Origin: Candidatus Moraniibacteriota bacterium
Lineage (GTDB): Bacteria > Patescibacteriota > Minisyncoccia > Moranbacterales > UBA1568
DNA length: 64,000 nucleotides
Assembly (NCBI GenBank): GCA_013334245.1
Contig: JAAXXZ010000003.1
Span: 2-64,001, forward strand
Direction: 5' to 3'
Positions within the stretch are counted from its first letter, which is position 1; each line of letters starts with the position of its first letter. Below, piece after piece: positions 49,812 through 64,000 of the stretch. The position numbers and the translations under genes were made by a program. A model generated the notes under the pieces. The model was not told the DNA's origin. It saw only the letters and a list, made by a program, of their open reading frames with translations, and ran no database searches.

Positions 49812-50975
49812 TTATGAGACGACCGAGTCGTCGAATTCCTCGATGTCACGTGATTTCTTTATCGAGAGCGAGACGGATTCCTTGTCCGGAATCTTCGCCG
49901 CCTCGACCGCCTTTCGTGCGGAGACGGGGAGTACGGGGAGAATCCCCCGTAACGCTGTCCCATCAATCTTCCTTATTTCATCCCATTTGTCAAGGGGTAC
50001 GAGGACCTCTCGGAGCTTGTCTTCGTCGTATTTCCAGGTCCTTCGGATCGATTTTCCGACTATTCCGGAAGATCCGAATACCCGGTCGACCTGTTTCCCT
50101 TCCATGTATCGGAGAAGCGTTTCCTGGAGCGCGGCGAAGCGCGTCTTGTCGCTCTTCATCCTGTCGCGGAGCGCGAGGATCTCTTCGATCGAGGTCTGCG
50201 CCTCTTCGTCTTCGACGGCCGTTTCTTCCTGGAACTTATGTTTCCAGAACGGACACAGTCGCTGAAATCCGCAGTAGTCGCAGAGTGGGGAGAGTATGGG
50301 ATCGAATTTTCCATCCTCGATGTTCCGTATCGTTTCGAGGAACTGGCGATCGAGATCTTCGAGCTGTTCCCTGGTCCGCGTCGAAGACAGTTTCACTCCG
50401 TGGCGAAGGTAGTAGAGGCTTACCGTGATGCGGTCAAGATGCGCGGTCTCCTTCGGATATCGGTCAAGAAATGCGCGGAGATAAATGGAGAGCTGGAGGT
50501 CGTTGTCGACCTTCTCCTGTGAGGGCATCTTGCGTGCCGTCTTATAGTCGATAATCTCGAAGCCGTCCGGAGTCGCATCAATACGGTCGATGATCCCGGC
50601 GATGACATGTTTGCCGTTTTCCTGGTCTCCGATCTCGATCGCGAAGCGGCTTTCCAGGTCGACGATGGTGAAATCGGCGGGGTTGTTCTTCGCGTAGTAG
50701 TCCGAAATGATCTTGACACCCTGCGTGAACGCGGCGCGTTCCTCGGTCTCGTCCGCGTAGGCGTCCCCGTTCCACGACTGCGAAAACTGGTTGAGCGCGG
50801 CATCGAGCGACGGCTGCATGGGTGCCGGCGTGTGAATGTATCGCAGTACGGAGTGCACAATGGTACCGAAGATCTGTTCCTTGGACTTTGGTTCCTTTAT
50901 CTTGTCGATCGCTTGGAAGCGATACTTCAGCGGACAATTCTTGTAGGCCTCGAGTCCCGAGTAGGATATTCTCAT
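49812..50975 (-). CDS. PD-(D/E)XK nuclease superfamily protein (RecB/Cas4-like) with C-terminal Cys cluster
   Basis: 387 aa. The N-terminus YKNCPLKYRF and IIDYKT (nuclease motif III-like), then C..CGFQRLC (4-Cys arrangement typical of Fe-S RecB-family nuclease domains). Confidence 0.6.
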   Translation of the reverse strand: MRISYSGLEAYKNCPLKYRFQAIDKIKEPKSKEQIFGTIVHSVLRYIHTPAPMQPSLDAALNQFSQSWNGDAYADETEERAAFTQGVKIISDYYAKNNPADFTIVDLESRFAIEIGDQENGKHVIAGIIDRIDATPDGFEIIDYKTARKMPSQEKVDNDLQLSIYLRAFLDRYPKETAHLDRITVSLYYLRHGVKLSSTRTREQLEDLDRQFLETIRNIEDGKFDPILSPLCDYCGFQRLCPFWKHKFQEETAVEDEEAQTSIEEILALRDRMKSDKTRFAALQETLLRYMEGKQVDRVFGSSGIVGKSIRRTWKYDEDKLREVLVPLDKWDEIRKIDGTALRGILPVLPVSARKAVEAAKIPDKESVSLSIKKSRDIEEFDDSVVS

Positions 50976-51071
50976 AGTCGTTCTTTAAAAATGGCAGTTT
51001 AGACCTGATTATATCATGAAAGCAAATTCTTCACTGCGGAGCCATTACGGTATACACTTTGATCATAAATA

Positions 51072-51722
51072 ATGTGTTGGACATGTATGAAGAGTGGAAA
51101 ATGGACCGTGGATAATGTCGAAGATGGTTTAAATAGGTACTTTAAGGAGTTCGGTCGTTTTCCTACTGCACAGGAGATTGATAAAGTTAGTTACCTGCCC
51201 TCGTCACGACAGATTCAGCGGCGCTGGGGCGGGTTAGAGGAGCTAAGACGCCTACTCGGTCACAAGGATATTAATTTTGGTAAAGGTGTCCATAGAAGTA
51301 GGATTGCTCATGAATCCAATGTCAAGGGGAGGAGCGGGGAAGGATCCGTAAGGAAACTATTATGTGAGAGATTTCACGAAGAATTTGTTCATATCGAACG
51401 ACCGATAGATAAAAACAGAAAATTACGTGCAGATTTTTACGTGTACAGTCCCGAGGGAAATTTCTGCGTCGACGTATTTTCTACGGATACATTTCATGAC
51501 CTAGTCACACATATAGGCATAAAGTCCAGAAAATATGCCCATTATAGCGAGAAACTATTTTTTCTCTTAATTTCAGATCAGCTTTCCCAATGTGATATTG
51601 ACCTTTTGATTCAGAGAAAGAAAGTCCCTTTGTCTTCAAATGTATCGCTGGTAACGTTAGAATCGTTCAAGCAAATAATAAGAATTATGCCAAGTTATGA
51701 TTTCGTAGAGCAAAAATTGTAA
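51072..51722 (+). CDS. hypothetical protein in an AT-rich island, possibly a nuclease-fold protein
   Basis: 216 aa in a region of markedly lower GC (about 51000-52150). ERFHEEFVHIERPIDKNRKLRADFYVYSPEGNFCVDV loosely resembles E...D/E-x-K restriction-endonuclease-like cores. Speculative. Confidence 0.35.
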   Translation: MCWTCMKSGKWTVDNVEDGLNRYFKEFGRFPTAQEIDKVSYLPSSRQIQRRWGGLEELRRLLGHKDINFGKGVHRSRIAHESNVKGRSGEGSVRKLLCERFHEEFVHIERPIDKNRKLRADFYVYSPEGNFCVDVFSTDTFHDLVTHIGIKSRKYAHYSEKLFFLLISDQLSQCDIDLLIQRKKVPLSSNVSLVTLESFKQIIRIMPSYDFVEQKL

Positions 51723-52179
51723 ATGCGGGAGGGGAGTGGTACTTATGAGTAAAAGATAGGAATAGAAATAATTTCGCTATTCAATCGTATGACAATGACG
51801 GTAGATAGTGTCAGGCGAGCTAGAGTCTACCGACTGCGGGCGCGATGGCATCTCATTTATTCTATTATAAAATTGATATTCATAAATAATATTGCTTGTG
51901 CCGTATTTATTCATGACATGTCGTACTATGTAACTTATGCGACATGCTAAAAGAAAATTTTATACGGCACCAGGCCGCTTCGTTGTCCGACTCTTTGTGT
52001 TTTAAGATTCCTGGGTGTACGATAGCACATGAAAAGTAACCCTGCAAGATTATGTCAAGAGGTCGATATAGAAGCATGGAACCCTGGCGCTGGTCCTTCG
52101 GTGAAGTTGTCGCCTATATAGTGATGGCCGGCGCGTTCTTCGCTTGGGTTTTCTTACATCAAATCTGACATCGAAACAA

Positions 52180-52674
52180 TCAAGCGTTGACCGTAGCAGA
52201 AACAGCCAGTCGATAGGCTCTCACGATCTGACCCGCTCGTTGCGCACTGATACCAAACACCCGGGCAATCTCCGTCGGCCCGGTTTTCTTTTGGATCAAT
52301 TGTTCCAAGCGCGCGACTCCTCCCTGCGCCTGGTATCGCCGGTCGAAAAAATCGCGATTAAATGCTTTCACGTCCAGGCCAGTATATGCTTCCTGAAATA
52401 TGCTCATTCTTTCGTCTAAAATCGTCCTCTCGGCCTCAATTTCAGTCGGACCCCATGAAAGAACCAACCGGGGGAGTCTGACGCGCTGACGGAGGTATTG
52501 GACGGCCTTACGGCGAAATGAAACAGAGGGTAACGCGGCGACCATCTCCGTCATCTCATACTCCCCTTCAAGATAGATCGATTCGCCGCAGTGCGGACAA
52601 TATTTCACAAAATATCCAAAGCCTCCCTTTTGTGCGCCGATCCAATACGCCTTTCCGATAGTTTTGCTCGCCAT
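52180..52674 (-). CDS. putative DNA-binding protein (zinc ribbon + C-terminal HTH) at the edge of the phage-like module
   Basis: CPHCGESIYLEGEY zinc-ribbon-like and a C-terminal TGPTEIARVFGISAQRAGQIVRA HTH. ATG 52674 chosen because a hairpin lies in the upstream extension. Confidence 0.4.
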   Translation of the reverse strand: MASKTIGKAYWIGAQKGGFGYFVKYCPHCGESIYLEGEYEMTEMVAALPSVSFRRKAVQYLRQRVRLPRLVLSWGPTEIEAERTILDERMSIFQEAYTGLDVKAFNRDFFDRRYQAQGGVARLEQLIQKKTGPTEIARVFGISAQRAGQIVRAYRLAVSATVNA

Positions 52675-52782
52675 ACGCTGAACACAAAGCCACGCGGGCG
52701 AGCGCGTGGCTGTGCGAATTATAGCACATCTCGCCATGCGCCGGAATTCTTTTTCTGTTTATGTTTGTGTTTGTGTTTGTCT

Positions 52783-52955
52783 CTACGCTCCGGACCGGGC
52801 GCCGATATAGTATCCGGCGGCGGCCGTCGCGAGCGATTCGAGCAGCGCGGGCACCTCAATCTTGAGAATGACCGCGACGCAAACCGTCGCAATCACCGAC
52901 AAGGCGAGTATGGCCCGCACACTCCCCTTCGGGAGCCCGAGCGGTTCGTCCGTCA
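52783..52955 (-). CDS. small TM protein (holin/spanin-like)
   Basis: MTDEPLGLPKGSVRAILALSVIATVCVAVILKIEVPALLESLATAAAGYYIGARSGA, adjacent to the endolysin. Confidence 0.35.
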
Positions 52956-52979
52956 TGGCGTTATTCTTAATGCTTAAAC

Positions 52980-53798
52980 TTATTTGATAATGATCGTAAG
53001 CACCATCCCCGCCATAATCAGGCTTGGGTTGGTAACGATCATTTTGTTGGTCTCGTATATCTCGAGCCAACGGGCGGCGCTGCCCAAATATCGTTGTGCG
53101 ATACTTGAGAGCGTTTCGCCTCTCGCAACGGTGTGTTTCACCGTTTCCGGTTCAACCGTATCAGTCTTCAACACGTCCGGAATCCGTAATTCCTGCCCGA
53201 CACGAATCGTACCGGGTTCCTTCAAAATGTCAGCGTTCGCAGCAAATATCTCAGGCCAGCGCGCAGAACTTCCCAGATACGCGCGCGCAAGTCCTGAAAG
53301 CGTATCGCCGGAAACCACCCTATGGCGCGTCGGTCGAATGGTTACCCCTTCCGCTTCGCGAAACAGCGCGGGCTGATTCAAAAACATCTGCGGATCCATC
53401 AACGCACCATCCTTCCATACGGAAAGATGCAAATGCGCCCCCGTAGATTGTCCGCTGTTTCCGGACTTGCCGATCTTCTGCCCAAGACTGACGTTGTCGC
53501 CAGGCTTCAATCGATCATCGATTTCGCTCATATGGCCGTATAATGCTTCGTATCGTCCATCGGCCGATCGTATGACAACCATCCGGCCGTAGCCGGTCAG
53601 TTGCCAGCGCTCAATACGCGAGACCCATCCGTCGAATATCGCTAAAAGCGGCGTGCCAGTCGGCACGGCAAAATCGGTGCCATTGTGATGGCCTCCATTT
53701 GTCTTATACATTTGCGGCCAATAGTTCCAGAATTTCTGCGAAACAGGGTATTCCCCTTCAAACGCTTTCGGCTTAATGTCTGTGCTCATAATCGTCAT
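52980..53798 (-). CDS. phage endolysin: M23 (LytM) peptidase domain + two LysM domains
   Basis: HNGTDFAVPTGTPL...GNSGQSTGAHLHLSV is the M23 H-x3-D / H-x-H metallopeptidase pattern. Two LysM repeats follow (HRVVSGDTLSGLARAYLG... and HTVARGETLSSIAQRYLG...). Confidence 0.85.
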   Translation of the reverse strand: MTIMSTDIKPKAFEGEYPVSQKFWNYWPQMYKTNGGHHNGTDFAVPTGTPLLAIFDGWVSRIERWQLTGYGRMVVIRSADGRYEALYGHMSEIDDRLKPGDNVSLGQKIGKSGNSGQSTGAHLHLSVWKDGALMDPQMFLNQPALFREAEGVTIRPTRHRVVSGDTLSGLARAYLGSSARWPEIFAANADILKEPGTIRVGQELRIPDVLKTDTVEPETVKHTVARGETLSSIAQRYLGSAARWLEIYETNKMIVTNPSLIMAGMVLTIIIK

Positions 53799-54020
53799 TT
53801 AATGATTTATCCTACAAGCTTTTATATCGTTCACGCTGTCGCGTATCCACTTGATGTCAGTCTGAATCGCAGAAATTGCGGCATCAAGCTTGTCATGCGC
53901 CTCTACACGTTTCTCAAGCGTTGAAACGCGCTTTTCATTCGATCTCCAAATGACAGCGATCAACGCGATCGAAACGGTCCACGCAAGCGCAAAAATCGGA
54001 AATGGTACTTGGTCGGGCAT
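53799..54020 (-). CDS. holin-like small membrane protein
   Basis: 73 aa with an N-terminal TM (FPIFALAWTVSIALIAVIW) and a charged coiled C-terminus. The stop overlaps the endolysin start (TAAATG). Confidence 0.4.
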   Translation of the reverse strand: MPDQVPFPIFALAWTVSIALIAVIWRSNEKRVSTLEKRVEAHDKLDAAISAIQTDIKWIRDSVNDIKACRINH

Positions 54021-54021
54021 A

Positions 54022-54519
54022 TTACGAAACCTTAAAGACGCTTAATCGCGGAGTATAAACCACACGCGCCGCTCCTGAGTCTTGATAAATTTGCGCCTCA
54101 ATATAATCGCCCGGTACAAAATTAAAACAATCCGACAATGATCCAGCGTATCGTCCGGGTGCATCTTTTGAAAAAAAACAATCAGCAAGTTGGCTTCCAT
54201 TTTTTGCAATCGCAAACGCTCTTCCGGAACCACTGGTCGATGCTTCTATAGATGCACCAAAATTCACAAAATATACGCCGGCTTGATTGATAACAATCCG
54301 TTTATTCGTAGTATCGACCGTAATGTCGCCCGTTTGCGAGTCCACAGTCGCCGTGGAAGTCACTTTAGAAAAAACGCCAGAGGGACTCGAAAAATTGGCA
54401 AAGGCCAACTTCCCCTGTATCGGCGCTTTCGTGGTTGCAATAGTCAATGCCCGGATAGCATCCGCAATAGCCTTTAACGCCAAAATAATTCCTGAAAAAG
54501 AAATCTTTTCCATATTCAT
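54022..54519 (-). CDS. phage structural protein, fibre-tip-like (beta-rich)
   Basis: 165 aa, Ser/Thr/Gly-rich beta-type sequence. Position between large fibre-like gene and holin. Confidence 0.35.
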   Translation of the reverse strand: MNMEKISFSGIILALKAIADAIRALTIATTKAPIQGKLAFANFSSPSGVFSKVTSTATVDSQTGDITVDTTNKRIVINQAGVYFVNFGASIEASTSGSGRAFAIAKNGSQLADCFFSKDAPGRYAGSLSDCFNFVPGDYIEAQIYQDSGAARVVYTPRLSVFKVS

Positions 54520-55889
54520 TTCATTAATGTCATCGGCAAATAAATATATTCAAGATCAACACCGCCAGGCGTCGTTGCCGTATCGGTCGTCTGCAGCTCG
54601 ATCTTAAATTCGACAAACTCATATGGTCCGCTGCCCGGCGGCCAATCATACATCGCAACGACCGCGCCATCCGTTTCACTCGTCAAAATAAGCCCGTAAG
54701 CTGTAGCACGATTAAATCGGACATAGACTTTGACCGTGTGACCAGCAAGCAGCGGATTGTGCCGCAAAACAATGCGGCGCGGTGAATGTGTAGCGCAATC
54801 GATCTCCCCTGTTTCAAGAACAGCGGCTGAAAGGCTATAATTGCTCGTTTTCGAAACTCTCAATTTAGACGCCGTAATAGGGCCTCCGGAATAGGCTTCA
54901 CATACGTATAGGCGTTCCCCTAAGAAAGGCATCGGATCATAGTCGTGCGAAGCTCCGCTTGTAACAGTAGGATATGATTCGACGAAAAAAACGCTCCCGG
55001 AATCAATATCAATCGCATACAATTTCCGAGTCGTATCATCTGACACAAAAAATCCAAAACCATCACAAATATACAGCGCGCGAACAGTAGGTGCAGACCA
55101 TGGTAAGCGTCGCAACAGCTTCAATTCACCGTCATAAAGATAAACGTCAAGGTACCCGGTCGCCGTAAGCGCATAAAACAAAGCCACATCATCTCCAAAA
55201 GACGTTCCAAAGTAAAAATGAAACGGTATAGAGTCCAACGCCTGATCGCGGACAAATTCGTCAGACTCCGTTTTCCGATAGATTTTATCATCATGCCGAA
55301 CAAACAATGTTGATCCGACAGTGAAAAAATATGTGTCACTACCCACTCCGAACTCATGAACCAGTTCATATGTGACAAAATCCTTCGTGCGCAATATGTT
55401 CAACTCACCTTCGCCCAAGTATATATATTCGTCAAAAAAACAAATATCCGTCACGTTTCCGATAGCCGGCGCAGTCTCCGTCCACGAATCACCGCCATCA
55501 AAAGAATACGTGAGGTGGGGCAAATCAGAATCAAACACAACGACCAAATCAGTCCCCTTTTTCGCAAAAATACTTTGGGCTGACGCGAATGTATAAGAGC
55601 ACGTTTTCTTTTTTGTCCACGTCAATCCATCAAGCGTCCTCCAAATCTCGACTAAAAGCGTCGCAGGATTCGTAAGAACCATAAACGCGCCGCGCGAATT
55701 TGACGCAAACCGAGTATCACCACTCGTAGTAGCCGCAATTTCTGAAGACACAGCAACAGACCGTGGCAAAACCAGGTCACCGCTGTCAGTCACGTTAAGC
55801 GTAGCCGATCGAAACCCGTCCGGCTCAAACGTCTTGTATCCGAGTCCCTTCCGAAACCCCTTGATCAACTTAGATTTTTCAGTGCTCAT
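54516..55889 (-). CDS. phage structural protein, putative receptor-binding/tail-fibre (beta-propeller-like repeats)
   Basis: 457 aa with repeated hydrophobic-aromatic blocks (YIYLGEG, YFFTVGSTLFV, FYALTATGYLDVYLY, LYAIDIDSGSVFFV) suggesting a propeller fold. Confidence 0.4.
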   Translation of the reverse strand: MSTEKSKLIKGFRKGLGYKTFEPDGFRSATLNVTDSGDLVLPRSVAVSSEIAATTSGDTRFASNSRGAFMVLTNPATLLVEIWRTLDGLTWTKKKTCSYTFASAQSIFAKKGTDLVVVFDSDLPHLTYSFDGGDSWTETAPAIGNVTDICFFDEYIYLGEGELNILRTKDFVTYELVHEFGVGSDTYFFTVGSTLFVRHDDKIYRKTESDEFVRDQALDSIPFHFYFGTSFGDDVALFYALTATGYLDVYLYDGELKLLRRLPWSAPTVRALYICDGFGFFVSDDTTRKLYAIDIDSGSVFFVESYPTVTSGASHDYDPMPFLGERLYVCEAYSGGPITASKLRVSKTSNYSLSAAVLETGEIDCATHSPRRIVLRHNPLLAGHTVKVYVRFNRATAYGLILTSETDGAVVAMYDWPPGSGPYEFVEFKIELQTTDTATTPGGVDLEYIYLPMTLMK

Positions 55890-56476
55890 ACGTTTGCTTG
55901 TTTGATTCGCTTTATCTCCTGATCCACTTCGTCACTCACCTCCTTCAAAACACGCCGTATTTCGTTTACATCGACATCAGGCATAAATTGTTTCGTCGTC
56001 GCCGTAAGCAAAACCAGTCGCCGAAGGTATCGAGAAACTCCCAAAAGCGCGGCGACAGGTAGATACCGTTCCGGAATATCAAGCGTGGTTCCGTCCGCAG
56101 TTGGGACCGTAAATGCGACGCGTCGATGAATCGTAATGGTTTTACCGCTTCCCGGTGCAAGCAGAAAAATTATCTCAGTCGCGGTCTGATAAAAGCGGTT
56201 CTGTCCGCCGTCTCGACAAACATCAATACGCTCGCGCTCATCAAGCGCGATCTCCTCGTATTCCTCGTCGCCGACCAAAATTCCATAGATACCAATCGTT
56301 CCGGAAGGCTTCGAAAAAATAGCGGTCGATCCATTGCCGGTCAGACTCGTGTCCTCGTCGTCAAGCCAAAAGAAATTCGACAAATGCCGAATCGCGTCGG
56401 CAGCCGCGATCGTAACGTCGGCCGAAGAATCGGCGACATAATTCTTGATAACCGTCTTAAATTCTGCGTACGTCAT
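55886..56476 (-). CDS. phage hypothetical protein (possible head-tail adaptor)
   Basis: ATG at 56476 (MTYAEFKTVIKNY...). Positioned between capsid and fibre genes. Confidence 0.35.
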   Translation of the reverse strand: MTYAEFKTVIKNYVADSSADVTIAAADAIRHLSNFFWLDDEDTSLTGNGSTAIFSKPSGTIGIYGILVGDEEYEEIALDERERIDVCRDGGQNRFYQTATEIIFLLAPGSGKTITIHRRVAFTVPTADGTTLDIPERYLPVAALLGVSRYLRRLVLLTATTKQFMPDVDVNEIRRVLKEVSDEVDQEIKRIKQANV

Positions 56477-56651
56477 ACATGGTATGTTAGTGATTCCTCC
56501 GAAAAGCCCTGTTGGCGGGAAACTTCTGCTTGCGTCCGGACGACGGAACGACACGCCGCTACCGGAACCATCAGAGCTATTCGGAAGGATCAACAATTGT
56601 TGACCTTCCGGAATGTCGACATTGGCCGGCCGGCCATAGTCGACATTCCTT

Positions 56652-56885
56652 TCATTTCTTGTCTCCGTCTCCTTCGGGTTCCTTGTCCCCTTCCGGAACA
56701 GTCGGCTCCTCCGGTACTTCCTCAACTGCCTCAAGCGCATCATCCTCACTCAACTTTTTTATGAGCGCCTTGTTGTCCGTCTCGAACGGATCCCGATCCG
56801 TCAACGTGACCTTCTCGCCGCCGTAGAATCCAACATGGATCCCAGCGCGAAGGTTTATTCGTCTAAATTTCGCCATAATCGTCAT
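56652..56885 (-). CDS. small phage protein with acidic C-terminal tail
   Basis: MTIMAKFRRINLRAGIHVGFYGGEKVTL...EEVPEEPTVPEGDKEPEGDGDKK, immediately after the capsid gene. Confidence 0.3.
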   Translation of the reverse strand: MTIMAKFRRINLRAGIHVGFYGGEKVTLTDRDPFETDNKALIKKLSEDDALEAVEEVPEEPTVPEGDKEPEGDGDKK

Positions 56886-56945
56886 TTGTCGGATTAAATC
56901 CCCGAAGAGAGGATCCGGCCGGCCATCCGGCCGGATCCGCTGCAA

Positions 56946-58094
56946 TCAGGAGATGCCGTAGCAGCGGGTGCCGGCCCCGTTCCGGAAGTCTCCGGTATAG
57001 AGTCCAAGAACCTGCTTCGCCTTCTTCTTCCCGTTGGCAGGGAGATCGTAGGTCGCGAGCGCTCCGGAAACCTGTCCGTTTTCCATCGCACCATACGCGA
57101 TCCGCTCATCATCGACGATCAACATCTCGGAAGAAAGCATGTCACGGTCAGCTCGCAGTTCGAGATCAAACCCGAGAGCCGTAATAACCGCAACCGAAAG
57201 ACCGGCGCGACGCTCGTCACTCTTCATCTGCAGCTTGCCAGTGTAGAGCTGTTCGAGGGCAGCGATGGCATGAATCGAACCATGTATCGCCGTCGGTACC
57301 AGTCCAGCCGCAAGATGCGTCTCAAGCGCCGAATACAGCTTAGCCTCCGTAAGAGACCCACCGACGTTCGACGTGTTCGAAATGAACTGCCGAAGTCCGC
57401 CCATGGTCGCGACCTTGTTGGTCGTGTCATTGTTGCGGAGTCCGTAGATCAACGCGCGGTTCAGCAGCCGTAAGGTCTCCTTCGTCTTCACCGCAACCGC
57501 CATATCAAGCGCATCACCGAAGTCTGCTCCGGAAGCGATCGCCAGCTGCAGCGATTCATCGGCAACGTCCTCAAACTCCTGGACATAGTTGTAGTCCTCC
57601 GTAAAGCCCTGAAAGTTGGCCGTCATCGCATCCCCGCCTTCGACCTGCGCGTTACCGATGATCGTGACCGTAAACGCTGTGGTCGGCTGCGCCGTTGCCG
57701 TCGAGCCCCCATGTCCGCGCCCGTATACGTCAATCGTATTCGATCCGGTCGTCACCGTTTTAACGACAACCTGTTCACTGCCGTTCGGCAAAAGCAGAAC
57801 ATCGCCAACGCGGATCTTGGTTATATCACCCGAGGCAATCGGAAGGCTCGCCGTAACACCTGTCGAGTTCCACAGCACTCCTGCTCCGGATGTTCCAGAA
57901 GTAACTGTGACCACCCGCGCCGCAAGATTCCGCCACTCGTGCTTCGTCTTCGTAACCATCGCACCAAACCGACTCTTAATCGGCCGCAGGTGCCGGACAA
58001 ACGACAGATACCGCATATCGTTATCCGTCAGGAACAGGGTATCAATCACTGGGGAAAGATCCTCCCTGGTCCGAATATCTCCTATCAACATCAC
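56946..58094 (-). CDS. phage major capsid protein (HK97-fold likely)
   Basis: 382 aa, follows the scaffold gene. Gly/Ala/Thr-rich beta/alpha pattern typical of MCPs. No sequence motif is diagnostic. Confidence 0.55.
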   Translation of the reverse strand: MMLIGDIRTREDLSPVIDTLFLTDNDMRYLSFVRHLRPIKSRFGAMVTKTKHEWRNLAARVVTVTSGTSGAGVLWNSTGVTASLPIASGDITKIRVGDVLLLPNGSEQVVVKTVTTGSNTIDVYGRGHGGSTATAQPTTAFTVTIIGNAQVEGGDAMTANFQGFTEDYNYVQEFEDVADESLQLAIASGADFGDALDMAVAVKTKETLRLLNRALIYGLRNNDTTNKVATMGGLRQFISNTSNVGGSLTEAKLYSALETHLAAGLVPTAIHGSIHAIAALEQLYTGKLQMKSDERRAGLSVAVITALGFDLELRADRDMLSSEMLIVDDERIAYGAMENGQVSGALATYDLPANGKKKAKQVLGLYTGDFRNGAGTRCYGIS

Positions 58095-58168
58095 TTTGAA
58101 AGAACGACCGCCACCTCGCTACACCTCATCGCACACCTCGTCATCCCGTACTATCGAATTAAAACCGC

Positions 58169-58879
58169 TTACTGACTAAGACCATTCCGGACTCGCGTGA
58201 GTCGCATCACCTCGACGGATTTCTGGACACCGCTCATATTCTGGTCCTTCTGGACCTTCTCAATCGCTGCATCCACATCCGCCGCTGTGCCATAGGCAGG
58301 AGCCGCAAAATACCGACTATCGCCGTATATCTGCTTATTCCTCGCCCGCTGCGCCTCGACGATCTTTTCGATCGCCGCGTCGTCCTTGTCGATAAGCAGT
58401 TCCGGAAGAATATCCGGATACTTCTCGGCAAGAATCTTCTCGCGCTTTTCCCTCTGAACCGTCGCCAGTTCATCGGTAAGCCGTTTGACCTCCTCGCGCA
58501 TCGATTCGACAATCTGAGACAAAGCCGAACCATCCGCGCCCTTCATGCGCTCAAGTTCGGCCTGCGCCGCCTTAAGCTGCTTATCCCGCTCCGTCAGTTT
58601 GGCGTGGAGGGCCTGGATATTCGGATCCAAGTTACCGCCGTCGCCAGGTTTGCCGCCGCCGGCATCCGGATTGCCGTTCCCTTTCGGGTCAGGGTCCTTA
58701 TTGCCGTCGCCGGGACCTTTTTCACCCTCCGACTTCGTCTCTCCGATCATGAAGATCCCCAGCGGCAAAACCGCCGGACCCGCGACCATCGCCACAAGAG
58801 CGACGACCGCAGCAAAGAAAATCCGCCTTCGGTTGAAAACAATAGAATCCATCACCTCCTGTATCATGCTCCGCATCAT
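58169..58879 (-). CDS. phage scaffolding-like protein (N-terminal TM, Gly/Pro/Asp-rich linker, coiled coil)
   Basis: KLTERDKQLKAAQAELERMKGADG...EEVKRLTDELATVQREKREKILAEK, a heptad-rich helical segment. Sits between portal-proximal genes and capsid. Confidence 0.45.
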   Translation of the reverse strand: MMRSMIQEVMDSIVFNRRRIFFAAVVALVAMVAGPAVLPLGIFMIGETKSEGEKGPGDGNKDPDPKGNGNPDAGGGKPGDGGNLDPNIQALHAKLTERDKQLKAAQAELERMKGADGSALSQIVESMREEVKRLTDELATVQREKREKILAEKYPDILPELLIDKDDAAIEKIVEAQRARNKQIYGDSRYFAAPAYGTAADVDAAIEKVQKDQNMSGVQKSVEVMRLTRVRNGLSQ

Positions 58880-58963
58880 ATGTTTGTCATCGTTCGTTTT
58901 TTGATAATCCGCCGCCGCTCCTTCTCGATCTTCCGCCGATATTCCCGATTCCCGACATCCGGC

Positions 58964-59359
58964 TCAAGTTTCGCTATCCCCTGCCGGAGGCTCCTCCGCG
59001 CCTTCCGATATTTCGACCGCCACCGATGCCTCAATATCAAGAATGAGGCAGAGAGGATCATCCGGAAACGGCACCAAACTCCGTGTTTCATACGGTTTTT
59101 TCCTTAGTCGATTTATAAATGCCTTTGTAGGGCCAATTTGAAGCGGCGCGTCATTGCAGACGTACACCAAAGACCCCTCTTCAACCCCAGCCGCCTTAAA
59201 CGCGGGCGACAAATGCGGCGAAGTGGCATACGTCCTCGTTACTATTTCTCCATCCTTCACGACATCAAACCACACCTTTACATCGTTCATGTAAGGCGGA
59301 ATCTGTACAAAATCTCGTAAAATATGCACTTCCATATGTTTATGCCGTTCGTTTAACAC
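58964..59359 (-). CDS. phage hypothetical protein
   Basis: 131-aa ORF, no motif. Confidence 0.3.
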   Translation of the reverse strand: MLNERHKHMEVHILRDFVQIPPYMNDVKVWFDVVKDGEIVTRTYATSPHLSPAFKAAGVEEGSLVYVCNDAPLQIGPTKAFINRLRKKPYETRSLVPFPDDPLCLILDIEASVAVEISEGAEEPPAGDSET

Positions 59360-60209
59360 CTGCGGCCAAAATCCGCAGATCTGTTATCGCTGCCGACAAT
59401 TGTGCGGTCCAATTTTCATTCGCAACCGGCTGCAGCATCGGGACATCAGAAAAATCAATTCGCACCGTCTCGCCGGCCGGCACATTGACCGATAGTAACA
59501 CTGTGCCAGCAGTCGCCGCTCGAATATCGACACGCACCGCGCTCGCGCTTGTGTTCGTAAACATCATCCAGGAAGGATCAACATATACGCCCGCCCCTGC
59601 GGCCGCAAGCAGCGTCGTCTCGGTCGTTGTCGTCAAGATAAGAGGCATTTGCACCATCTGCGCACGCACTCCCAGCGCGACCATAACCTGCTTACCCAGC
59701 AAATCAAACATTGCGTCCACTCGATCAGCATTCGCAACAGCCGCCCTATCAGCACTTCCAGCTCGCCCACCTACTTTCACCGGATTGGATGAATCGACTG
59801 CATCATGACCCGCGTTGCCGTTAATGGAAGCAGAAACAGTATTCAGTAATCCTACAATCGGTTGTGTGGACAATAACACCGTCGCGGTACGCGTACCGGA
59901 CGTATATGCCGATACTCGAATCCGGAAATAGACGGTCGGAACCATGCCATACCATTGTCCCGCAGAGGTAGCGCTCGTTGTTGCAGATCCTCCAGCAACC
60001 GGTACCAACGCACAGGAGCTCCAATTTATACCGTCATTAGAACACTCAAAAATTACCGTACCAACAAACGTACCTGATAGTTGCACGACGACCGAATCAA
60101 ACAGATCCATCAAAATCGGCGATCCGTCAGATGTCAAAATATTGTTAGTCAAAGCAGCCGCAGAACCCTGCATCAACTCTGTGTGTGAATTTGGTACGAC
60201 TCTGCTCAT
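59340..60209 (-). CDS. phage hypothetical structural protein (Ala/Thr/Ser/Val-rich)
   Basis: 289 aa, between the portal and scaffold genes, so a minor head protein or protease slot. No protease motif seen. Confidence 0.35.
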   Translation of the reverse strand: MSRVVPNSHTELMQGSAAALTNNILTSDGSPILMDLFDSVVVQLSGTFVGTVIFECSNDGINWSSCALVPVAGGSATTSATSAGQWYGMVPTVYFRIRVSAYTSGTRTATVLLSTQPIVGLLNTVSASINGNAGHDAVDSSNPVKVGGRAGSADRAAVANADRVDAMFDLLGKQVMVALGVRAQMVQMPLILTTTTETTLLAAAGAGVYVDPSWMMFTNTSASAVRVDIRAATAGTVLLSVNVPAGETVRIDFSDVPMLQPVANENWTAQLSAAITDLRILAAGVKRTA

Positions 60210-61570
60210 AGCCCTTTCTTGTTCTTTTCAACTTCATCACTGGGCTTAAAAAACTCGCGCTCTTTCAGAATCTCTGCGAGCTTCAAGTCAGCGTCTTCAC
60301 CGCCCCGCAACTCCTCGATCGCGTCTCGACGAGAAATCAAACTGGCATCAACCATCATCGTCATTTCCTCGACCTTCGCCTTCGTATCCTGCGGCAGTGC
60401 CGGATGATAAACGGGATCTGTATGATAGTCGCCATCGGTCGCACCGAAACGATACGTAAGGATCGCCCGATTCAGTGCGCGGAATCCCTCATCCCAGAAA
60501 ACGCGCATATAGGCGACCGCATCAAGCATGTCGTTGTATTGGTAGGCCAAAGAAACGCCGGAAACCGCGCTCTTGATCGTACCAGCGGAATCAACCAAAC
60601 ACAGCTTGGTCTTGATTTGTTCGCGGATATCCGACACATACGCCGCGATATCCTCAGCGTCCGGAACCGTCAGATATTTAGCGTCAGCGCCCTTTTCAAG
60701 ACGCGTAACCTTCTTCCGCCCTCGCTTGACCGCCGACTCGTCCTTTACCAAGTCGGACATAAAAACCAGATGCGGATCGGTATTGTCGCCGACTCGCTTT
60801 GACCAATCGCTCGTGCGTCGATTCAGATCCTCTTCAAGGCTTCGGACGGAGCGCAATTTCGGCCGACCGTTCATGCTGTGCGGCTTCGGACGGTTGGGCA
60901 TAAAAGAATACGGCACAACATGCGAAACATTATCGCCCTGCGCCTTTACGGCATCGTCCTCGATGACGACATACGCGTCGCGAGTCCAATACGTAACCCG
61001 CTTCGTCAGCGTCATGTGCGCATTGTAAAACTCCTCCGTATGTGCGGCAGCGGCAAGCCCATCGGCGTCAAACAGAAACGAGCATCGCGTCGGGTCAACG
61101 GATCGAATCATGGCCCGCTTCGTCGTCGGATCTTGCGGATAATACAGAACCGCCGATCCACCGACCAGAAAGTTTTGCCCCTGCTCGAGCAAAATCGCCG
61201 ACAGGTTTGACCGCTTGTACACGTCGATGATCTCCTGTTCATACTTCGAGCGCTTGGCCTTGTCCTGCTCGTAAGTCTTCACGCCGATTTCAAGCACCTG
61301 CGTCCGCGGATTGATCGGAAACAATTTGCCGAGATATTTGTCCGTATAATCTTCGGAAAGATTCAGCGTCAAAACGGGCGCGTCCTCGCGCTCGAGTTTC
61401 TCGGCCGCATCCCACTGGTTACCATCAAAAACAAAGGAAAATGCCTTTGCGAACTCCGATTCGCGCTCGCGTCGTCCCTTCTCCGTCGCGGAGATGAAAT
61501 CACTCGCCGCGCGCACGAGCGCCGCATTCGTCGGACTCACTGCCGTCTTGATTTTATTGAAAATACCCAT
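60206..61570 (-). CDS. phage portal protein (putative)
   Basis: 454 aa, immediately downstream of the large terminase in transcription order. Size and charge pattern are typical of portals. Confidence 0.5.
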   Translation of the reverse strand: MGIFNKIKTAVSPTNAALVRAASDFISATEKGRRERESEFAKAFSFVFDGNQWDAAEKLEREDAPVLTLNLSEDYTDKYLGKLFPINPRTQVLEIGVKTYEQDKAKRSKYEQEIIDVYKRSNLSAILLEQGQNFLVGGSAVLYYPQDPTTKRAMIRSVDPTRCSFLFDADGLAAAAHTEEFYNAHMTLTKRVTYWTRDAYVVIEDDAVKAQGDNVSHVVPYSFMPNRPKPHSMNGRPKLRSVRSLEEDLNRRTSDWSKRVGDNTDPHLVFMSDLVKDESAVKRGRKKVTRLEKGADAKYLTVPDAEDIAAYVSDIREQIKTKLCLVDSAGTIKSAVSGVSLAYQYNDMLDAVAYMRVFWDEGFRALNRAILTYRFGATDGDYHTDPVYHPALPQDTKAKVEEMTMMVDASLISRRDAIEELRGGEDADLKLAEILKEREFFKPSDEVEKNKKGL

Positions 61571-61580
61571 ACATCGTATC

Positions 61581-61787
61581 TTATTTGAAACACTCCTCCT
61601 TCATCTTCAACCAGATATCCACTCCGCATTCCGGACACGTCGCCGCCTTCGTTGCCTTTCCCTGCTCGCTGTTGTCATGTATCAAACCGATCATCTTCTG
61701 CTTATCATTCCATCCGACCGTCGTCGCCGGGATCATGCATATCGGACACATGAACCGACTTGCGTATAGCTCATCCGAGATCTCCAT
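61581..61787 (-). CDS. small zinc-ribbon protein
   Basis: CPIC...CPEC, two CxxC pairs in 68 aa. Confidence 0.4.
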   Translation of the reverse strand: MEISDELYASRFMCPICMIPATTVGWNDKQKMIGLIHDNSEQGKATKAATCPECGVDIWLKMKEECFK

Positions 61788-63138
61788 ACTTCACCGTCTC
61801 AATGGTTATGCCCGATGCCGCGATGGCAAGCGCCATCAGCCAGTCGGTATCGAGATTGACATCGCTTCTCTGATAGACGGTCATCTCGTCGGCCAATGCC
61901 GGAATGAACGGCGCCACCAGCAGCCCGGCATCAATCACCGCCTGCAAATGATCAAGCAGCTCGTCCTTGCGCCCGCCGCGGAAGTCAACGGGATCAGCGA
62001 TATCCATCAAAATGCCGTACAGCGTATCACCGACACCGGTCGAGTCGAGCCGCACATCCTCGCGTGTCTCATAGTGCGAAGCGCGGATCTCCCGTTCGAT
62101 GGATGATTGCTCAATGACTCGTCCCTCGGCCGCGTTGATGTTCTCGCGCTCCTTCTCGGTCCATGGCAGCTGGAAGTTCCACGTCTTCACCACGCGCGCC
62201 GGCCGCTCGGTTACGTCCAGCCGTATCCCTACAGTCTGGTCCGACTGGCTCCCCTTGCGGCCTCGTGCGAGATCCCATCCCGACAGGTATTTCCGGCCGA
62301 CCTGTGGCTCTTCAAAGGTCAGGTCGTCGCGGAACAATACCGGCACACGGGAAGCAAACATCATCGTACCCGTGTCGATGGACTTGCCGTAGATCGTCTG
62401 CTGCACGCGGGCCTCACTCCACGAGCTCGTGATATACCGGAGCAAGTCATGATCGATCCACGGATTTTCAAAAGAACTCCCACCGCGGACATACCCGCCG
62501 GCCCGCCCTATCTTCTCGACGACGCGCCAGTAGGCGTTCTTCCCCTTCGGCGTTGCGAAGAAGTCCAACTGACTATCCGGGTATTTGCGAGTGCGAGGAA
62601 GGAGAATGGATTCGCGGATGAACTCAAGATATGGCTCAAGCGCGATTTCGTCCGCACTGATATAGCCGTACTCCTTACCTTCAACCGATTCCGCCTTCTT
62701 CTTCGTCGTCTTGAACTCCGTCTCGGACCCGAAACGATATCGAATCCGAGGAACCGGAGAACTGACAATCCCATTTTTCGGAATCAATCCGAGTCGTGAA
62801 AGAACTGGACTCTCCTGCGCGTACCTCACGATCCGCGCTTGAACCATCTCCGCCTGCTCGATAGTAATCGCTATATTCAGCGTTCGATATGCAGGATCGA
62901 AGAGATGGCTCAAGATGAACCGCAAATGCTTAATGGCGATAACCTCCGTCTTTCCAAAACCGTTCCCAGGATGAAGCGCGTTTTCCTTAAACTGCGCTTT
63001 CGATAGGAATTCCGACTGTCCATCATGCAACTTCCCTTTCAAAACGCACTCGACAAACGGCTGCCAATCCCCCTCATTCTGAATCTTCGCAAGCGACCAA
63101 GTGATCAAATCTATCAACTTCGCATCAATGTCAGTCAT
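61771..63138 (-). CDS. phage terminase large subunit
   Basis: The ATPase N-domain has HDGQSEFL and HPGNGFGKT (Walker A-like). The C-terminal nuclease has DVRLDSTGVGD and DWLMALAIAA. ATG 63138 chosen because the first codon of the track ORF is TTG. Confidence 0.8.
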   Translation of the reverse strand: MTDIDAKLIDLITWSLAKIQNEGDWQPFVECVLKGKLHDGQSEFLSKAQFKENALHPGNGFGKTEVIAIKHLRFILSHLFDPAYRTLNIAITIEQAEMVQARIVRYAQESPVLSRLGLIPKNGIVSSPVPRIRYRFGSETEFKTTKKKAESVEGKEYGYISADEIALEPYLEFIRESILLPRTRKYPDSQLDFFATPKGKNAYWRVVEKIGRAGGYVRGGSSFENPWIDHDLLRYITSSWSEARVQQTIYGKSIDTGTMMFASRVPVLFRDDLTFEEPQVGRKYLSGWDLARGRKGSQSDQTVGIRLDVTERPARVVKTWNFQLPWTEKERENINAAEGRVIEQSSIEREIRASHYETREDVRLDSTGVGDTLYGILMDIADPVDFRGGRKDELLDHLQAVIDAGLLVAPFIPALADEMTVYQRSDVNLDTDWLMALAIAASGITIETVKYGDLG

Positions 63139-63690
63139 ACGCCATTTCGAATCACATCCGATTTGATATCGCCCATTCCAACGCACCACCCCTTCGAACC
63201 ACAAAGCCCCTACTGCTTGGCCGTCCCCCTACTGAATCGATCGCGGGCCTCGTACTGCTTCGGTGTGTGTCGTCGCGAATACTGCTGGGCGTGTCATTCG
63301 TGGCCCCTACCTTCGAACCGTATCCGTGGTGGCTTGCACGAAAGGTGGTCGTCTGCACCAAGCGCAACCGCGTGGCAAGCTCCCCGTAGCAGAGTGGCAC
63401 GTTCCTACTCGACACCCGGCTGGCCTCGTCCCGCCTATCCGGCCCCTACCAAACCCGATTCGGCCAGATGTGCTTCGGAGTACGTCTACGCTCCTTCGCG
63501 CTGGTACCTTATGGCCTCAAAAGGATGGGGACTATTCCGATTCGCGCGCTACGGGCTCACCGTCGTCCGAGGGGCCCCCGCCCCACGGCCTAGGCGATCC
63601 CGTTCCGAAGCAGGTCAGGGCACCCCGCCGTCCCCTCTACCCCCCCGGACCCCCCGTACTCTCCCGGCATCCCCGATATTGACGGGGGCC

Positions 63691-63954
63691 TCATTGGTTC
63701 GGGGGGGAGAGGAGCACTCTTGGGGGCCCTTCGGAAAGGCATTCCCCCGAGGGCGACTGATACCGGCCCGACCGTCGTGTCCGCACCGCGGCCCCGCCGT
63801 ATGTCGGACCGGCAAGGTTTCGCCCTCCTCCCCTGCCTTTCCGCCCTGCTTTCGGACGCGCGCCCAACCGTTTCCGATTCTTCTTCTTCGCCTCTTTCCC
63901 GCCCCTGCCCTTGGGTGGTTTCTGCTTCGTTGGATCTGGCTTGCGCTCGGGCAT
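63691..63954 (-). CDS. small highly basic protein upstream of terL (possible small terminase / DNA-binding). Very tentative.
   Basis: MPERKPDPTKQKPPKGRGGKEAKKKNRKRLGARPKAGRKGRGG... Lies in an extremely GC-rich stretch and could be non-coding. Confidence 0.2.
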   Translation of the reverse strand: MPERKPDPTKQKPPKGRGGKEAKKKNRKRLGARPKAGRKGRGGGRNLAGPTYGGAAVRTRRSGRYQSPSGECLSEGPPRVLLSPPNQ

Positions 63955-64000
63955 CGTCCGTCCGGCGGGTCCCTGGCCCGCTCGGCCGGCCGACTTGCCC

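Follow-up and report, generated by a model that had tools for sequence, protein, structure and literature searches.

Integration without a self-encoded integrase is described for the IMEX elements TLCphi, GGI and VGJphi and for the dif-type double-jelly-roll vibriophages (PMC5357621, PMC12715192). In the attP of such elements, a single recombinase-binding arm is joined to a copy of the central region of the host dif and faced by a divergent second arm, and insertion at dif restores a working dif at one junction. The known IMEX phages are tailless (filamentous or double-jelly-roll) and come mostly from Proteobacteria; tailed phages are treated in the literature covered here as integrase-encoding. 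A report on Legionellales, in which a mobile element revealed the dif/Xer system, indicates that an integrase-less element with dif-like repeats points to its host's otherwise unannotated dimer-resolution site (PMC9765430). The same logic is applied here to another host phylum and another type of element.

The smallest tailed phages in isolation include Mycoplasma phage P1 (11.7 kb), Salmonella phage astrithr (11.6 kb), Rhodococcus phage RRH1 (14.3 kb) and members of the phi29-like group (PMC7762592, PMC11476376). With these the element described here shares a presumably short tail and a genome in the 12-15 kb range, which is about as small as tailed phages get and for which capsids of roughly T=3 are predicted (PMC7762592). 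Another relevant phage is Escherichia phage vB_EcoP_SU10 (Kuravirus; KM044272), whose gene order the element matches. SU10 is a 77-kb virulent phage that encodes a polymerase of its own and a far larger set of tail and ejection proteins, whereas the element is 13.8 kb long, apparently temperate and resident in a CPR host.

The locus lies at one end of the window, the 64,000-nucleotide stretch of DNA that was analyzed, which belongs to a Candidatus Moranbacteria MAG (Patescibacteria/CPR; host assignment by MAG binning). Its phage-like gene module is best explained as most of a complete 13.8-kb phage, presumably short-tailed, that is integrated in the chromosome of a CPR bacterium. The element as a whole is probably an intact temperate mini-podovirus that uses the host Xer at dif. 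If so, a tailed phage of Patescibacteria enters through dif and a host recombinase, a mode of integration for which only tailless phages have been on record.

Extent, host and relatives of the element

The original prediction placed 15 colinear minus-strand genes at positions 52180-63138 and read them as a podovirus-like or minimal phage, a GTA-like particle or a degraded prophage. All 15 ORFs are present, and an independent gene caller finds the same genes on an identical contig from Logan, L001. The element is larger than predicted, spanning 51929 to about 65747, and its end therefore lies roughly 1.7 kb outside the window. L001 is 100% identical to window positions 51918-64000 and continues 1,758 bp further. 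This independent contig holds an identical copy of the element, 13,800 bp long and bounded by a 19-bp direct repeat. The search beyond 64 kb that the prediction had proposed yielded, on L001, the att repeat, an initiator domain with iterons and a putative small terminase. The reason for the missing integrase was hidden from the window because the att sites, their dif-like nature and the left end lie partly outside it. As predicted, the flank is true chromosome, with genes for DnaK, a release factor, FtsE/FtsX, phosphoglucomutase, a carbamoyltransferase and RelA/SpoT.

The capsid protein defines a phage family without a close GenBank relative. It has 59 homologues, almost all on contigs of at most 15.7 kb, and the best match among capsid proteins of GenBank phages reaches 27% identity. 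No terL match was found among GenBank phages and no sequence relative among 50,697 GenBank phage records. At least 11 family members share the element's gene order on assemblies that close into circles of 11.9-15.5 kb. The comparison with related genomes covers a family of 16 genomes, in which synteny is conserved and the minimal tail set recurs.

A defective or domesticated prophage, or a producer of GTA-like particles, that is no longer mobile would fit two observations: both samples that hold the exact element sequence show it solely as an integrated copy, and no repressor or excisionase is recognized in the element. Against this, the ORFs are all intact and tightly packed, and neighboring genes have 4-nt overlaps or gaps of 0-10 nt (for example portal/g06, adaptor/g12, g12/g13, holin/lysin). 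The element has the same length as its free circular relatives, its att repeats are perfect, and it has putative packaging, replication and lysis determinants of its own. The element is also polymorphic in the second of the two samples, SRR11449211, which appears to contain occupied and empty sites side by side. No attP junction turned up in that sample. At both ends of L001, the terminal 30-mer consists of exactly 11 nt of flank and the 19-nt core; a k=31 graph, taken as the one behind the Logan contig, would give such ends if an empty attB were also present in the sample. GTA clusters are not known to carry att repeats or to occur as free genomes. Loss of mobility accordingly has a very small probability, and of the predicted readings the podovirus-like or minimal phage is supported and the degraded prophage and the GTA-like particle are not. 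The intact prophage would presumably also excise and be inducible.

Virion and lysis genes

All genes given below lie on the minus strand. The large terminase subunit (TerL; 61771..63138; 455 aa; phrog_2 3.7e-12) is 52-64% identical to the products of the family terL genes. It is followed by g04 (61581..61787; 68 aa), a CxxC...CxxC zinc-ribbon protein with weak zinc-ribbon matches and a homologue at the equivalent position in the prophage L034 (family F23). The portal (60206..61570; 454 aa) is of the SPP1 type (PF05133 1.2e-18; phrog_64 3e-24), and the major capsid protein (56946..58091; 381 aa) has an HK97 fold of the SU10 type (PF17236 SU10_MCP 7.4e-29), so that homology searches uphold both predicted calls. 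In the PDB, the capsid family profile matches 9in6 'major capsid of VP1' (1.8e-10) and the SU10 head protein 7z45 (9e-4). A 100% identical capsid protein is found on a record from a Candidatus Moranbacteria MAG.

Between portal and scaffold genes, this element alone in the family carries g06 (59340..60209; 289 aa), a candidate accessory virion or adhesion protein with two beta-sandwich (jelly-roll-like) domains in AF2 and Foldseek analysis. Structure-based annotation, suggested for every ORF, was informative for this protein: the model has a pLDDT of 83 and matches uncharacterized Caudovirales proteins (5.6e-22) and, in the PDB, PBSX XepA/YomS. It has 5,289 relatives, and proteins of 200-1,050 aa, some with F5/8 type C domains, end in the same C-terminal domain. 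The adjacent g07 (58964..59359; 131 aa) is element-specific, with no Pfam or PHROG match and no homologue in 15 relatives. The scaffolding protein candidate (58169..58879; 227-236 aa), also predicted, is a coiled-coil protein encoded between portal and capsid genes and found in 15 genomes (family F5); position, composition and conservation point to this role, and its database matches are weak coiled-coil Pfam hits. A small acidic protein, g10 (56652..56885; 77 aa), lies between capsid and adaptor genes, is also called on the Logan contig and has weak homologues in two relatives (L002, L012), and a small ORF (family F7) occupies its position in 14 relatives.

The head-to-tail adaptor g11 (55886..56476; 196 aa; PF24175 SU10_adaptor 6.2e-8, above the Pfam cut-off) is conserved across the family. 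It is followed by g12 (54516..55889; 457 aa), a beta-propeller protein whose family profile, A2, has its best PDB match among designed 'Cake' propellers (4e-7) and also matches a BNR xyloglucanase and sortilin Vps10. In the nine genomes with two separate ORFs, g12 always comes after the adaptor, and in four others a single longer ORF, possibly a fusion, takes the place of both. The AF2 model of g12 has a pLDDT of 42, and no similarity to SU10 tail proteins or other solved nozzles was detected. The protein probably serves as the tail nozzle or hub. The next gene, g13 (54022..54519; 165 aa), encodes a C1q/TNF-like tail fiber or receptor-binding tip. It matches C-terminal parts of virion and minor tail proteins (phrog_13989, 7.5e-6; phrog_737, minor tail protein, 1.9e-5), a BclA_C match (1e-3) falls under the Pfam cut-off, and proteins at the same position in relatives match Pfam C1q (4.8e-7). 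The predicted 2.9 kb between capsid and lysis genes was confirmed from the capsid stop (56946) to the holin start (54020) and is too short to hold genes for a tail tube or tape measure. Proteins for ejection or an internal core could not be identified in the element.

The holin candidate (53799..54020; 73 aa), directly upstream of the lysin with zero gap, combines a single TM helix at its N-terminus with a coiled coil. It has no database match, and we therefore infer its role, as predicted, from position, composition and conservation (family F9, nine genomes). The endolysin (52980..53798) combines an M23 metallopeptidase with two LysM domains (PF01551 7e-27; PF01476 3e-16; phrog_380 1e-33) and is conserved in 15 of the 16 family genomes. 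The small TM protein g16 (52783..53070; likely start ATG 52956, giving 57 aa) may be an accessory lysis protein or a membrane protein, and its positional counterparts in L007, L008, L020 and L021 (family F15) are 36-41% identical. Profile matches thus back the predicted terL, portal, capsid, adaptor, propeller, fiber-tip and M23+LysM calls, and the small TM protein is conserved in relatives.

The arrangement is podovirus-like, with an SU10/T7-like neck of adaptor and then propeller protein. The gene order agrees with that of SU10: terL comes first, portal, a small gene, scaffold and capsid follow, and another small gene, the adaptor and two tail genes precede the holin and the lysis gene. Capsid and adaptor fall in SU10-defined Pfam families; sequence similarity to SU10 itself is confined to a marginal capsid profile match. 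The virion would have a small HK97-fold capsid of SU10-type capsid protein on an SPP1-type portal, built with the coiled-coil scaffold and, in this element, bearing the two-jelly-roll protein g06. TerL would package the genome into it, probably together with a small-terminase-like protein of the zinc-finger/HTH type, and its tail would be reduced to three parts: adaptor ring, beta-propeller nozzle and C1q-like fiber. Release would depend on the holin, the M23/LysM endolysin and the small membrane protein.

The very small genome, which lacks polymerase, primase and helicase, the minimal tail set and the indirect assignment of g12 would also suit a capsid-forming satellite of the cf-PICI kind, which makes its own small heads and needs a helper for tail or replication. 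This seems most improbable, because adaptor, propeller, C1q-like fiber and a complete lysis cassette are ordered as in the autonomous podovirus SU10, the same minimal set occurs in 11 closed genomes, and the integrase, AlpA, primase-replicase and helper-interference genes typical of PICIs are missing.

Attachment sites and the dif-like host site

The attR, a regenerated 28-bp dif-like site, lies at 51919..51946 and reads ATGTCGCATAA-GTTACA-TAGTACGACAT on the minus strand. This site occurs once in the window and not at all in 100 shuffles. The 19-bp core shared by attR and attL, GCATGTCGCATAAGTTACA (51929-51947 in attR), stands at both ends of L001, 13,800 bp apart, the left (attL) copy being about 1.7 kb past the window end. 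It comprises one arm and the 6-bp center of the 28-bp, 11-6-11 palindrome. In a second prophage from another host, L033, the identity of the 17-bp repeat (ACGTCGCACAATGTAGA) likewise stops exactly at arm plus 6-bp center, the pattern described for TLCphi and GGI (PMC5357621). In a third, L034, two dif-like sites stand at one end and no recognizable site at the other. One junction regenerates a site with a 6-bp spacer, whereas the phage sites have 7-9-bp spacers, a difference from the IMEX elements, and a recognizable second arm. No XafT-like (DUF3653) factor was detected in the element.

A search with a degenerate 11-6-11 pattern turned up at least 120 loci in metagenomes, which comprise 86 distinct sites, some on contigs of up to 830 kb, with the consensus AyGTCGCACAA-TATAtC-TTTTrCGACrT. 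Positions left unconstrained in the pattern are conserved in 43-97% of sites (7/8 positions at 61% or more). The window site matches this conserved site and differs from the consensus in its center (GTTACA versus TATATC) and at two right-arm positions. Gene orientation converges on the site in 17/18 loci, with 88% + strand coding to its left versus 18% to its right (p=2.7e-4), and GC skew is higher to the left in 23/31 loci (p=0.011). The genes nearest the site are housekeeping genes and six tyrosine recombinases; five site neighbors, very probably among these six, have the Xer-type Phage_int_SAM_1 domain. Its 11-6-11 layout, its conservation across the phylum and its terminus-like surroundings argue that the site is a dif. 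In the window, cumulative skew has its maximum at about 52 kb, a switch inseparable from the strand bias of the phage itself because the sequence covered stops short of the chromosome on the right side of the insertion.

As predicted, no integrase was found in the module, nor in 20 flanking ORFs of 240-640 aa, and 52 kb of available flank yielded no Xer gene. The 16 family genomes gave no integrase, recombinase, polymerase or Rep and no match to a known recombinase fold or motif. Since the element has no integrase and its attP copies a dif arm and center, we infer insertion by the host Xer. The attP would copy one 11-bp arm and the 6-bp central region of the host 28-bp dif, and a host Xer-type tyrosine recombinase would insert the circular genome there, as for IMEX of the TLCphi or GGI type. 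A normal dif would be regenerated at attR (51919-51946), and the opposite junction would keep a phage-type site whose spacer is 8 bp long.

The last gene before attR, g17 (52180..52737; 164-185 aa), has a CxxC motif, a C-terminal HTH-like segment and no Pfam or PHROG match, and is a candidate lysogeny regulator or Xer accessory factor. It also offers an alternative: a complete prophage integrated by an unrecognized phage recombinase, such as g17 or g02, or by the integrase of another element, at a site that merely resembles dif or is a hot spot for several integrases. The only g17 homologue in 16 genomes (family F24) likewise adjoins attR, in L033, the other prophage with resolved att sites. 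In addition, g17 and g02 both lack a family assignment, no Xer gene is seen in the window, some tyrosine recombinases beside the site could be integrases of other elements, and the 7-9-bp phage spacers depart from the chromosomal 6 bp. Integration by such an enzyme is nevertheless unlikely: g17 is missing from the 14 other family genomes, 8 of which have dif-like sites, none of the 16 genomes shows a known recombinase fold, and both the features of the site and the arm-plus-center identity are those expected of dif and known from IMEX.

Left end and replication

The left end, 2.6 kb and partly outside the window, encodes g01, a 112-aa winged-helix initiator domain (HTH_36 1e-9; phrog_270 3.5e-10) followed by three iterons. 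Just past the window end, g02 encodes a zinc-finger/HTH protein, a putative small terminase for which no supporting database match was found. Pfam detects no primase or helicase in the element; among its proteins and 73 accessory ORFs of the 16 genomes, the only families found are Laminin_G_3, C1q, SSB, HTH_36, ArdcN and AbrB. Replication would be left to the host, except for the initiator domain and iterons. Mycoplasma phage P1 encodes a polymerase. The family genomes contain no protein-primed B-family polymerase or terminal protein (Pfam), no inverted terminal repeats were found and no pRNA was matched (Rfam); unlike phi29-like and the smallest tailed phages, the element would package by a classical TerL.

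An ORF-poor spacer of 1.1 kb (63139..64000 in the window, minus strand, continuing to about 64317) separates the putative small terminase from terL. It is 69% G+C with 10% T on the coding strand and has no Rfam match. A spacer of 0.74-1.66 kb lies at the same place in 15/15 family genomes measured; the 16th has these genes on the other strand. At positions 1500-1900 of L001, a hairpin-rich stretch is present (z about -3.4 on both strands).

Virion and lysis genes of a small-genome phage family

In the window, fifteen minus-strand ORFs fill positions 52180-63138 so tightly that adjoining ORFs share 4 nt or lie 0-10 nt apart, and an independent gene caller returns the same set from an identical public contig, in agreement with the compact phage-like module of the original prediction. 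Most of the functions that had been assigned from the sequence alone recur in database searches. The large terminase terL (phrog_2, 3.7e-12), an SPP1-type portal (PF05133, 1.2e-18) and an SU10-type major capsid protein (PF17236, 7.4e-29) supply the large terminase, portal and HK97-fold capsid by which a tailed phage of the short-tailed podovirus type is recognized, and the endolysin contains an M23 peptidase and two LysM domains. The capsid profile matches the capsid proteins of VP1 and SU10 in the PDB. The adaptor-sized protein is of SU10 type (PF24175, 6.2e-8), the 165-aa fibre-tip-like protein (g13) matches the C-terminal part of minor tail or virion proteins, with Pfam C1q matches in its positional equivalents in relatives, and the family profile of the 457-aa propeller-like protein (g12) retrieves beta-propellers from the PDB (best 4e-7). 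Tube, sheath and tape-measure families are unmatched and the capsid-to-holin distance is 2.9 kb, in line with the predicted lack of a recognizable tail tube or tape measure. For the candidate scaffold, the candidate holin and the small membrane protein, database searches give no match; all three keep their position across relatives.

The propeller fold class and gene position of g12 suggest a nozzle or hub. Its AlphaFold2 model, built from only two usable sequences, has a pLDDT of 42 and was discarded; a repeat search for g12 homologues, run with the family alignment, gave these two again and none further. Two proteins encoded between portal and scaffold, g06 (289 aa) and g07 (131 aa), are unique to the window element. 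The g06 model (pLDDT 83) has two beta-sandwich domains; the protein resembles many uncharacterized tailed-phage proteins and XepA of PBSX, its C-terminal domain is found at the ends of thousands of variable-length proteins, and it probably serves as an additional protein for adhesion or decoration. PDB searches with the single sequences of g12, g06 and the capsid protein, and with family profiles of the adaptor, g06 and g02 (a 175-aa protein encoded upstream of terL), gave nothing useful.

Of the 59 homologues of the capsid protein, nearly all lie on contigs of at most 15.7 kb. Scans of GTDB genomes and IMG/VR yield 31 loci, about 20 of which carry other family genes while the rest have a distant capsid match only, and 11 family genomes close as circles of 11.9-15.5 kb. 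The order common to 16 genomes is a small-terminase-like gene, an ORF-poor spacer, terL, a small gene, portal, scaffold, capsid, a second small gene, adaptor, a propeller protein of about 475 aa, one or two fibre-like proteins, holin, lysin and small membrane proteins. The adaptor, 457-aa and 165-aa proteins are the usual minimal tail set, with no truncation. Among GenBank phages there is no close relative (best capsid identity 27%, terL without a match).

The original prediction allowed for a podovirus-like or minimal phage, a GTA-like particle or a degraded prophage. Its first option holds, and a complete small podovirus prophage is very likely; the other two are excluded by these family results. 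In GTAs, a cluster of structural genes sits in the chromosome, lacks att sites, a free genome and packaging specificity of its own, and has a head too small to hold it, whereas perfect att repeats, the closed free genomes and a conserved small-terminase-like gene are found here. Among phage satellites, capsid-forming PICIs (cf-PICIs) have capsid genes together with an integrase, AlpA and a primase-replicase, and are devoid of tail or lysis genes. The adaptor, propeller, fibre, holin and lysin genes of the element argue against a satellite, as does the absence of any integrase or primase-replicase among the family accessory ORFs of 16 genomes. Phages like phi29 have a protein-primed B-family polymerase, a terminal protein, inverted terminal repeats and pRNA. 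In the element and its relatives no polymerase family is matched, Rfam gives no match in the spacer upstream of terL or in 10 family genomes, and the family's inverted terminal repeats measure 0-2 nt, while direct assembly overlaps join the genomes into circles. In SU10 the structural and lysis genes follow the same order, but HMM and phmmer searches with all element proteins and family profiles give only a marginal capsid match.

The element provides a complete, host-anchored genome for a phage family without a close GenBank relative; to our knowledge, CPR phages are experimentally almost unknown and none has been classified. At 12-15.5 kb these genomes mark the lower size limit of tailed phages and indicate how few genes suffice for a tailed virion: about 10 for structure and packaging, 3 for lysis and one initiator domain. 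Based on genome length, the capsid would be approximately T=3 (PMC7762592).

Extent of the element and its non-structural region

Left of the module, 52 kb of sequence carry ordinary host genes, as anticipated for flanking chromosome, including those for DnaK, a release factor, FtsE/FtsX, phosphoglucomutase, a carbamoyltransferase, RelA/SpoT, an ABC-F protein and a PD-(D/E)XK nuclease, along with two tRNAs. A Candidatus Moranbacteria MAG encodes, on a contig of 65,856 bp, a protein with 100% identity to the capsid protein. A second copy of the element is found in L001, a Logan contig of 13,841 bp from run SRR11449211, which is 100% identical to window positions 51918-64000 and runs 1,758 bp further. 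A 19-bp direct repeat, GCATGTCGCATAAGTTACA, is present at both ends of L001, 13,800 bp apart; its right copy corresponds to window positions 51929-51947, where it is single in the window and recurs in 0 of 100 shuffles.

At either end of L001 the terminal 30 bases consist exactly of the 19-nt core and 11 nt of flank. Logan assemblies are built with k=31, and a de Bruijn graph of that k would branch at these points if the sample also held reads of an empty site (flank-core-flank). Within SRR11449211 the element thus seems to be polymorphic, integrated in some cells and missing from others. No attP junction, and hence no excised form, was seen in this run, and record look-ups of two flanking host proteins (a 216-aa protein and the PD-(D/E)XK nuclease) in search of an empty site returned nothing.

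Continuing past 64 kb, as had been proposed for finding replication genes and att sites, reveals the left repeat, an initiator domain and iterons. The 2.6 kb upstream of terL consist of a 1.1-kb ORF-poor spacer, the 175-aa protein g02, three iterons and a 112-aa winged-helix replication-initiator domain (g01; HTH_36, 1e-9; phrog_270, 3.5e-10). The iterons (L001 717-796, outside the window) are ACTAGTAAAGCCAGTT(T/G)ACC-like copies at 23-24 bp spacing directly downstream of the initiator gene and form the probable replication origin of the element. The g02 protein has an invariant Cys/His cluster, an HTH-like segment and a conserved C-terminal motif; its gene is conserved next to terL in the family, and by position and architecture it is probably the small terminase.

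The spacer between this gene and terL (window 63139-64000, on to about 64317; L001 1442-2620) has 69% G+C compared with 53% for the element; T makes up only 10% of its coding strand, and a hairpin-rich core scores z about -3.4 on either strand. Such a spacer, 0.74-1.66 kb long, poor in ORFs and in most cases enriched in G+C, lies in the same place in 15 of the 15 genomes measured, the 16th having the bordering genes on the other strand, and takes up 6-13% of a very small genome. Open frames in the spacer arise from the lack of T, and the idea that it encodes a basic protein was rejected, as AT-rich relatives have no ORF there. A GCGNAGC heptamer, often within AGCG-N-AGCGA and corresponding to a GNA-triloop mini-hairpin motif, occurs in the spacers of L002, L004, L005, L007, L009-L011, L013, L017, L020, L033 and L034, all family loci, and is absent from that of the window element. 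It is found 36 times on the coding strand and 0 times on the other, at 13 times the density of the rest of the genomes (p=3e-22), and could be a repeat for packaging, priming or protein binding.

Attachment sites and the route of integration

The predicted absence of an integrase extends to the whole element: Pfam and PHROGs searches with all element proteins matched none, and no integrase, resolvase, transposase, polymerase or Rep was found by Pfam in these proteins and 73 accessory ORFs from 16 genomes. The 52 kb of flank contain no Xer gene. From the window-element junctions, attB is GAAATATCACT+core+TAGTACGACAT and attP is TTTTCTTTTA+core+CCTTTTGAGGC. The reconstructed attB, ATGTCGCATAA-GTTACA-TAGTACGACAT, is a 28-bp imperfect palindrome of 11-6-11 arrangement, whose left arm resembles the XerC arm of proteobacterial dif. 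In L033, a second family prophage of 12,604 bp in a different host, the flanking repeat is ACGTCGCACAATGTAGA and attB reads ACGTCGCACAA-TGTAGA-TTTTGCGAAGT. The identity between attP and attB spans 19 bp in the window element and 17 bp in L033 and comprises, in both, one arm plus exactly the 6-bp centre, the same arm-plus-centre identity that is described for TLCphi and the gonococcal island (PMC5357621). The attR junction (51919-51946) regenerates a site with a 6-bp spacer, and known IMEX elements likewise regenerate the site at one junction (PMC12715192).

Free family genomes have the site with both arms, in most cases within the terS-terL spacer. Phage-borne two-arm sites are located at L001 14-41, L033 3908-3936, L007 2685, L008 9899, L002 4552, L011 14042, L019 50 and L020 474. 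The centres of the phage copies measure 7-9 bp versus 6 bp in chromosomal copies, a difference that could decide which strand exchanges the recombinase completes.

The element shares with IMEX elements the lack of a recombinase of its own, a dif-like target at a terminus-like site and arm-plus-centre attP identity. In the literature consulted, IMEX phages are filamentous or double-jelly-roll phages, and tailed phages are treated as integrase-encoding. On this evidence, integration through Xer is reasonably probable, and the most likely explanation of the data as a whole is a temperate mini-podovirus, intact at 13.8 kb, that entered the dif of a CPR bacterium, most likely through the host Xer.

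Two further loci have paired sites. In the third prophage, L034, two dif-like sites lie 210 bp apart (3740 and 3951) at one prophage end; its right end was looked for and not located. The metagenome locus L140 has a full site at about 3404-3431 on the minus strand and a second, direct arm-plus-centre copy about 2.2 kb away, and the 2.2-kb segment between them may be a very small IMEX.

The 28-bp site as a putative dif

A metagenome scan with the degenerate pattern AYGTCGCAYAA-N6-TNNTRCGAMRT returned at least 120 loci, and 86 distinct sites are represented among the matches listed, on contigs of up to 830 kb and 29-60% G+C. The eight unconstrained positions are 43-97% conserved among the listed sites (seven of them at 61% or more), with the consensus AyGTCGCACAA-TATAtC-TTTTrCGACrT, from which the window site departs in the centre. 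For the 18 listed loci with at least 3 kb on either side, coding on the plus strand falls from 88% left of the site to 18% right of it, a pattern seen in 17 of the 18 (Wilcoxon p=2.7e-4), and in 23 of 31 listed loci the left side has the higher GC skew (p=0.011). In the window, cumulative GC skew rises over 52 kb and turns at the site, beyond which lies prophage and not far-side chromosome; the flanks of L033 are convergent, with skews of +0.165 and -0.059. The ORFs nearest the listed sites are housekeeping genes (SecDF, GluRS, Mur ligase, cellular M23 peptidases). Tyrosine recombinases account for 6 of the 140 neighbouring ORFs, and the five neighbours with the Xer-type N-terminal domain Phage_int_SAM_1 very probably fall among these six.

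Prediction of dif relies on a palindromic 11-6-11 structure, wide conservation and position at a switch in gene orientation and skew (PMC3025954); the 28-bp site has these properties and is read as a putative dif. Literature searches found no paper tying Patescibacteria to dif or Xer. In CPR genomes such a site would serve as a marker of the replication terminus and aid in closing and orienting assemblies.

By a slight preference, we regard the element as belonging to the first tailed-phage IMEX, in which a whole family of short-tailed CPR phages of 12-15.5 kb has dropped its integrase and achieves lysogeny through a dif mimic shown to the host Xer. If this is true, the same data define a previously undescribed Patescibacteria dif with the consensus of the listed sites, the systematic 7-9-bp phage spacer, against 6 bp in the chromosome, is a control device for strand exchanges, and a dif with a half-dif 12-15 kb away becomes a rule for finding prophages, which would escape integrase-based prophage finders.

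Two host genes recur beside the putative dif. The linkage of the PD-(D/E)XK nuclease (window 49812-50975) is conserved, with homologues 38-61% identical adjoining the site in eight other loci (L034, L053, L074, L092, L108, L109, L121 and L142). The palindrome could be taken for an operator of the adjacent nuclease gene; that reading was rejected because most loci have other neighbours and phages recombine exactly at the central region. The second conserved neighbour of the putative dif is an M23 peptidase gene, within about 1 kb of the site in more than 10 listed loci, among them L086 (2273-3547), L144 (4340-5650), L058, L076, L108, L113, L125, L127, L134 and L142. A prophage lysin was rejected for L086 and L144, where the genes encode 424-436 aa in host-like operons. 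In L053, L108, L121 and L142 the site lies just 20-70 bp upstream of the nuclease start codon. In the window, about 950 bp of lower G+C (50976-51928; 0.47) part the nuclease gene from the site; this segment, whose 216-aa ORF has no family match, may have been left by an earlier insertion there.
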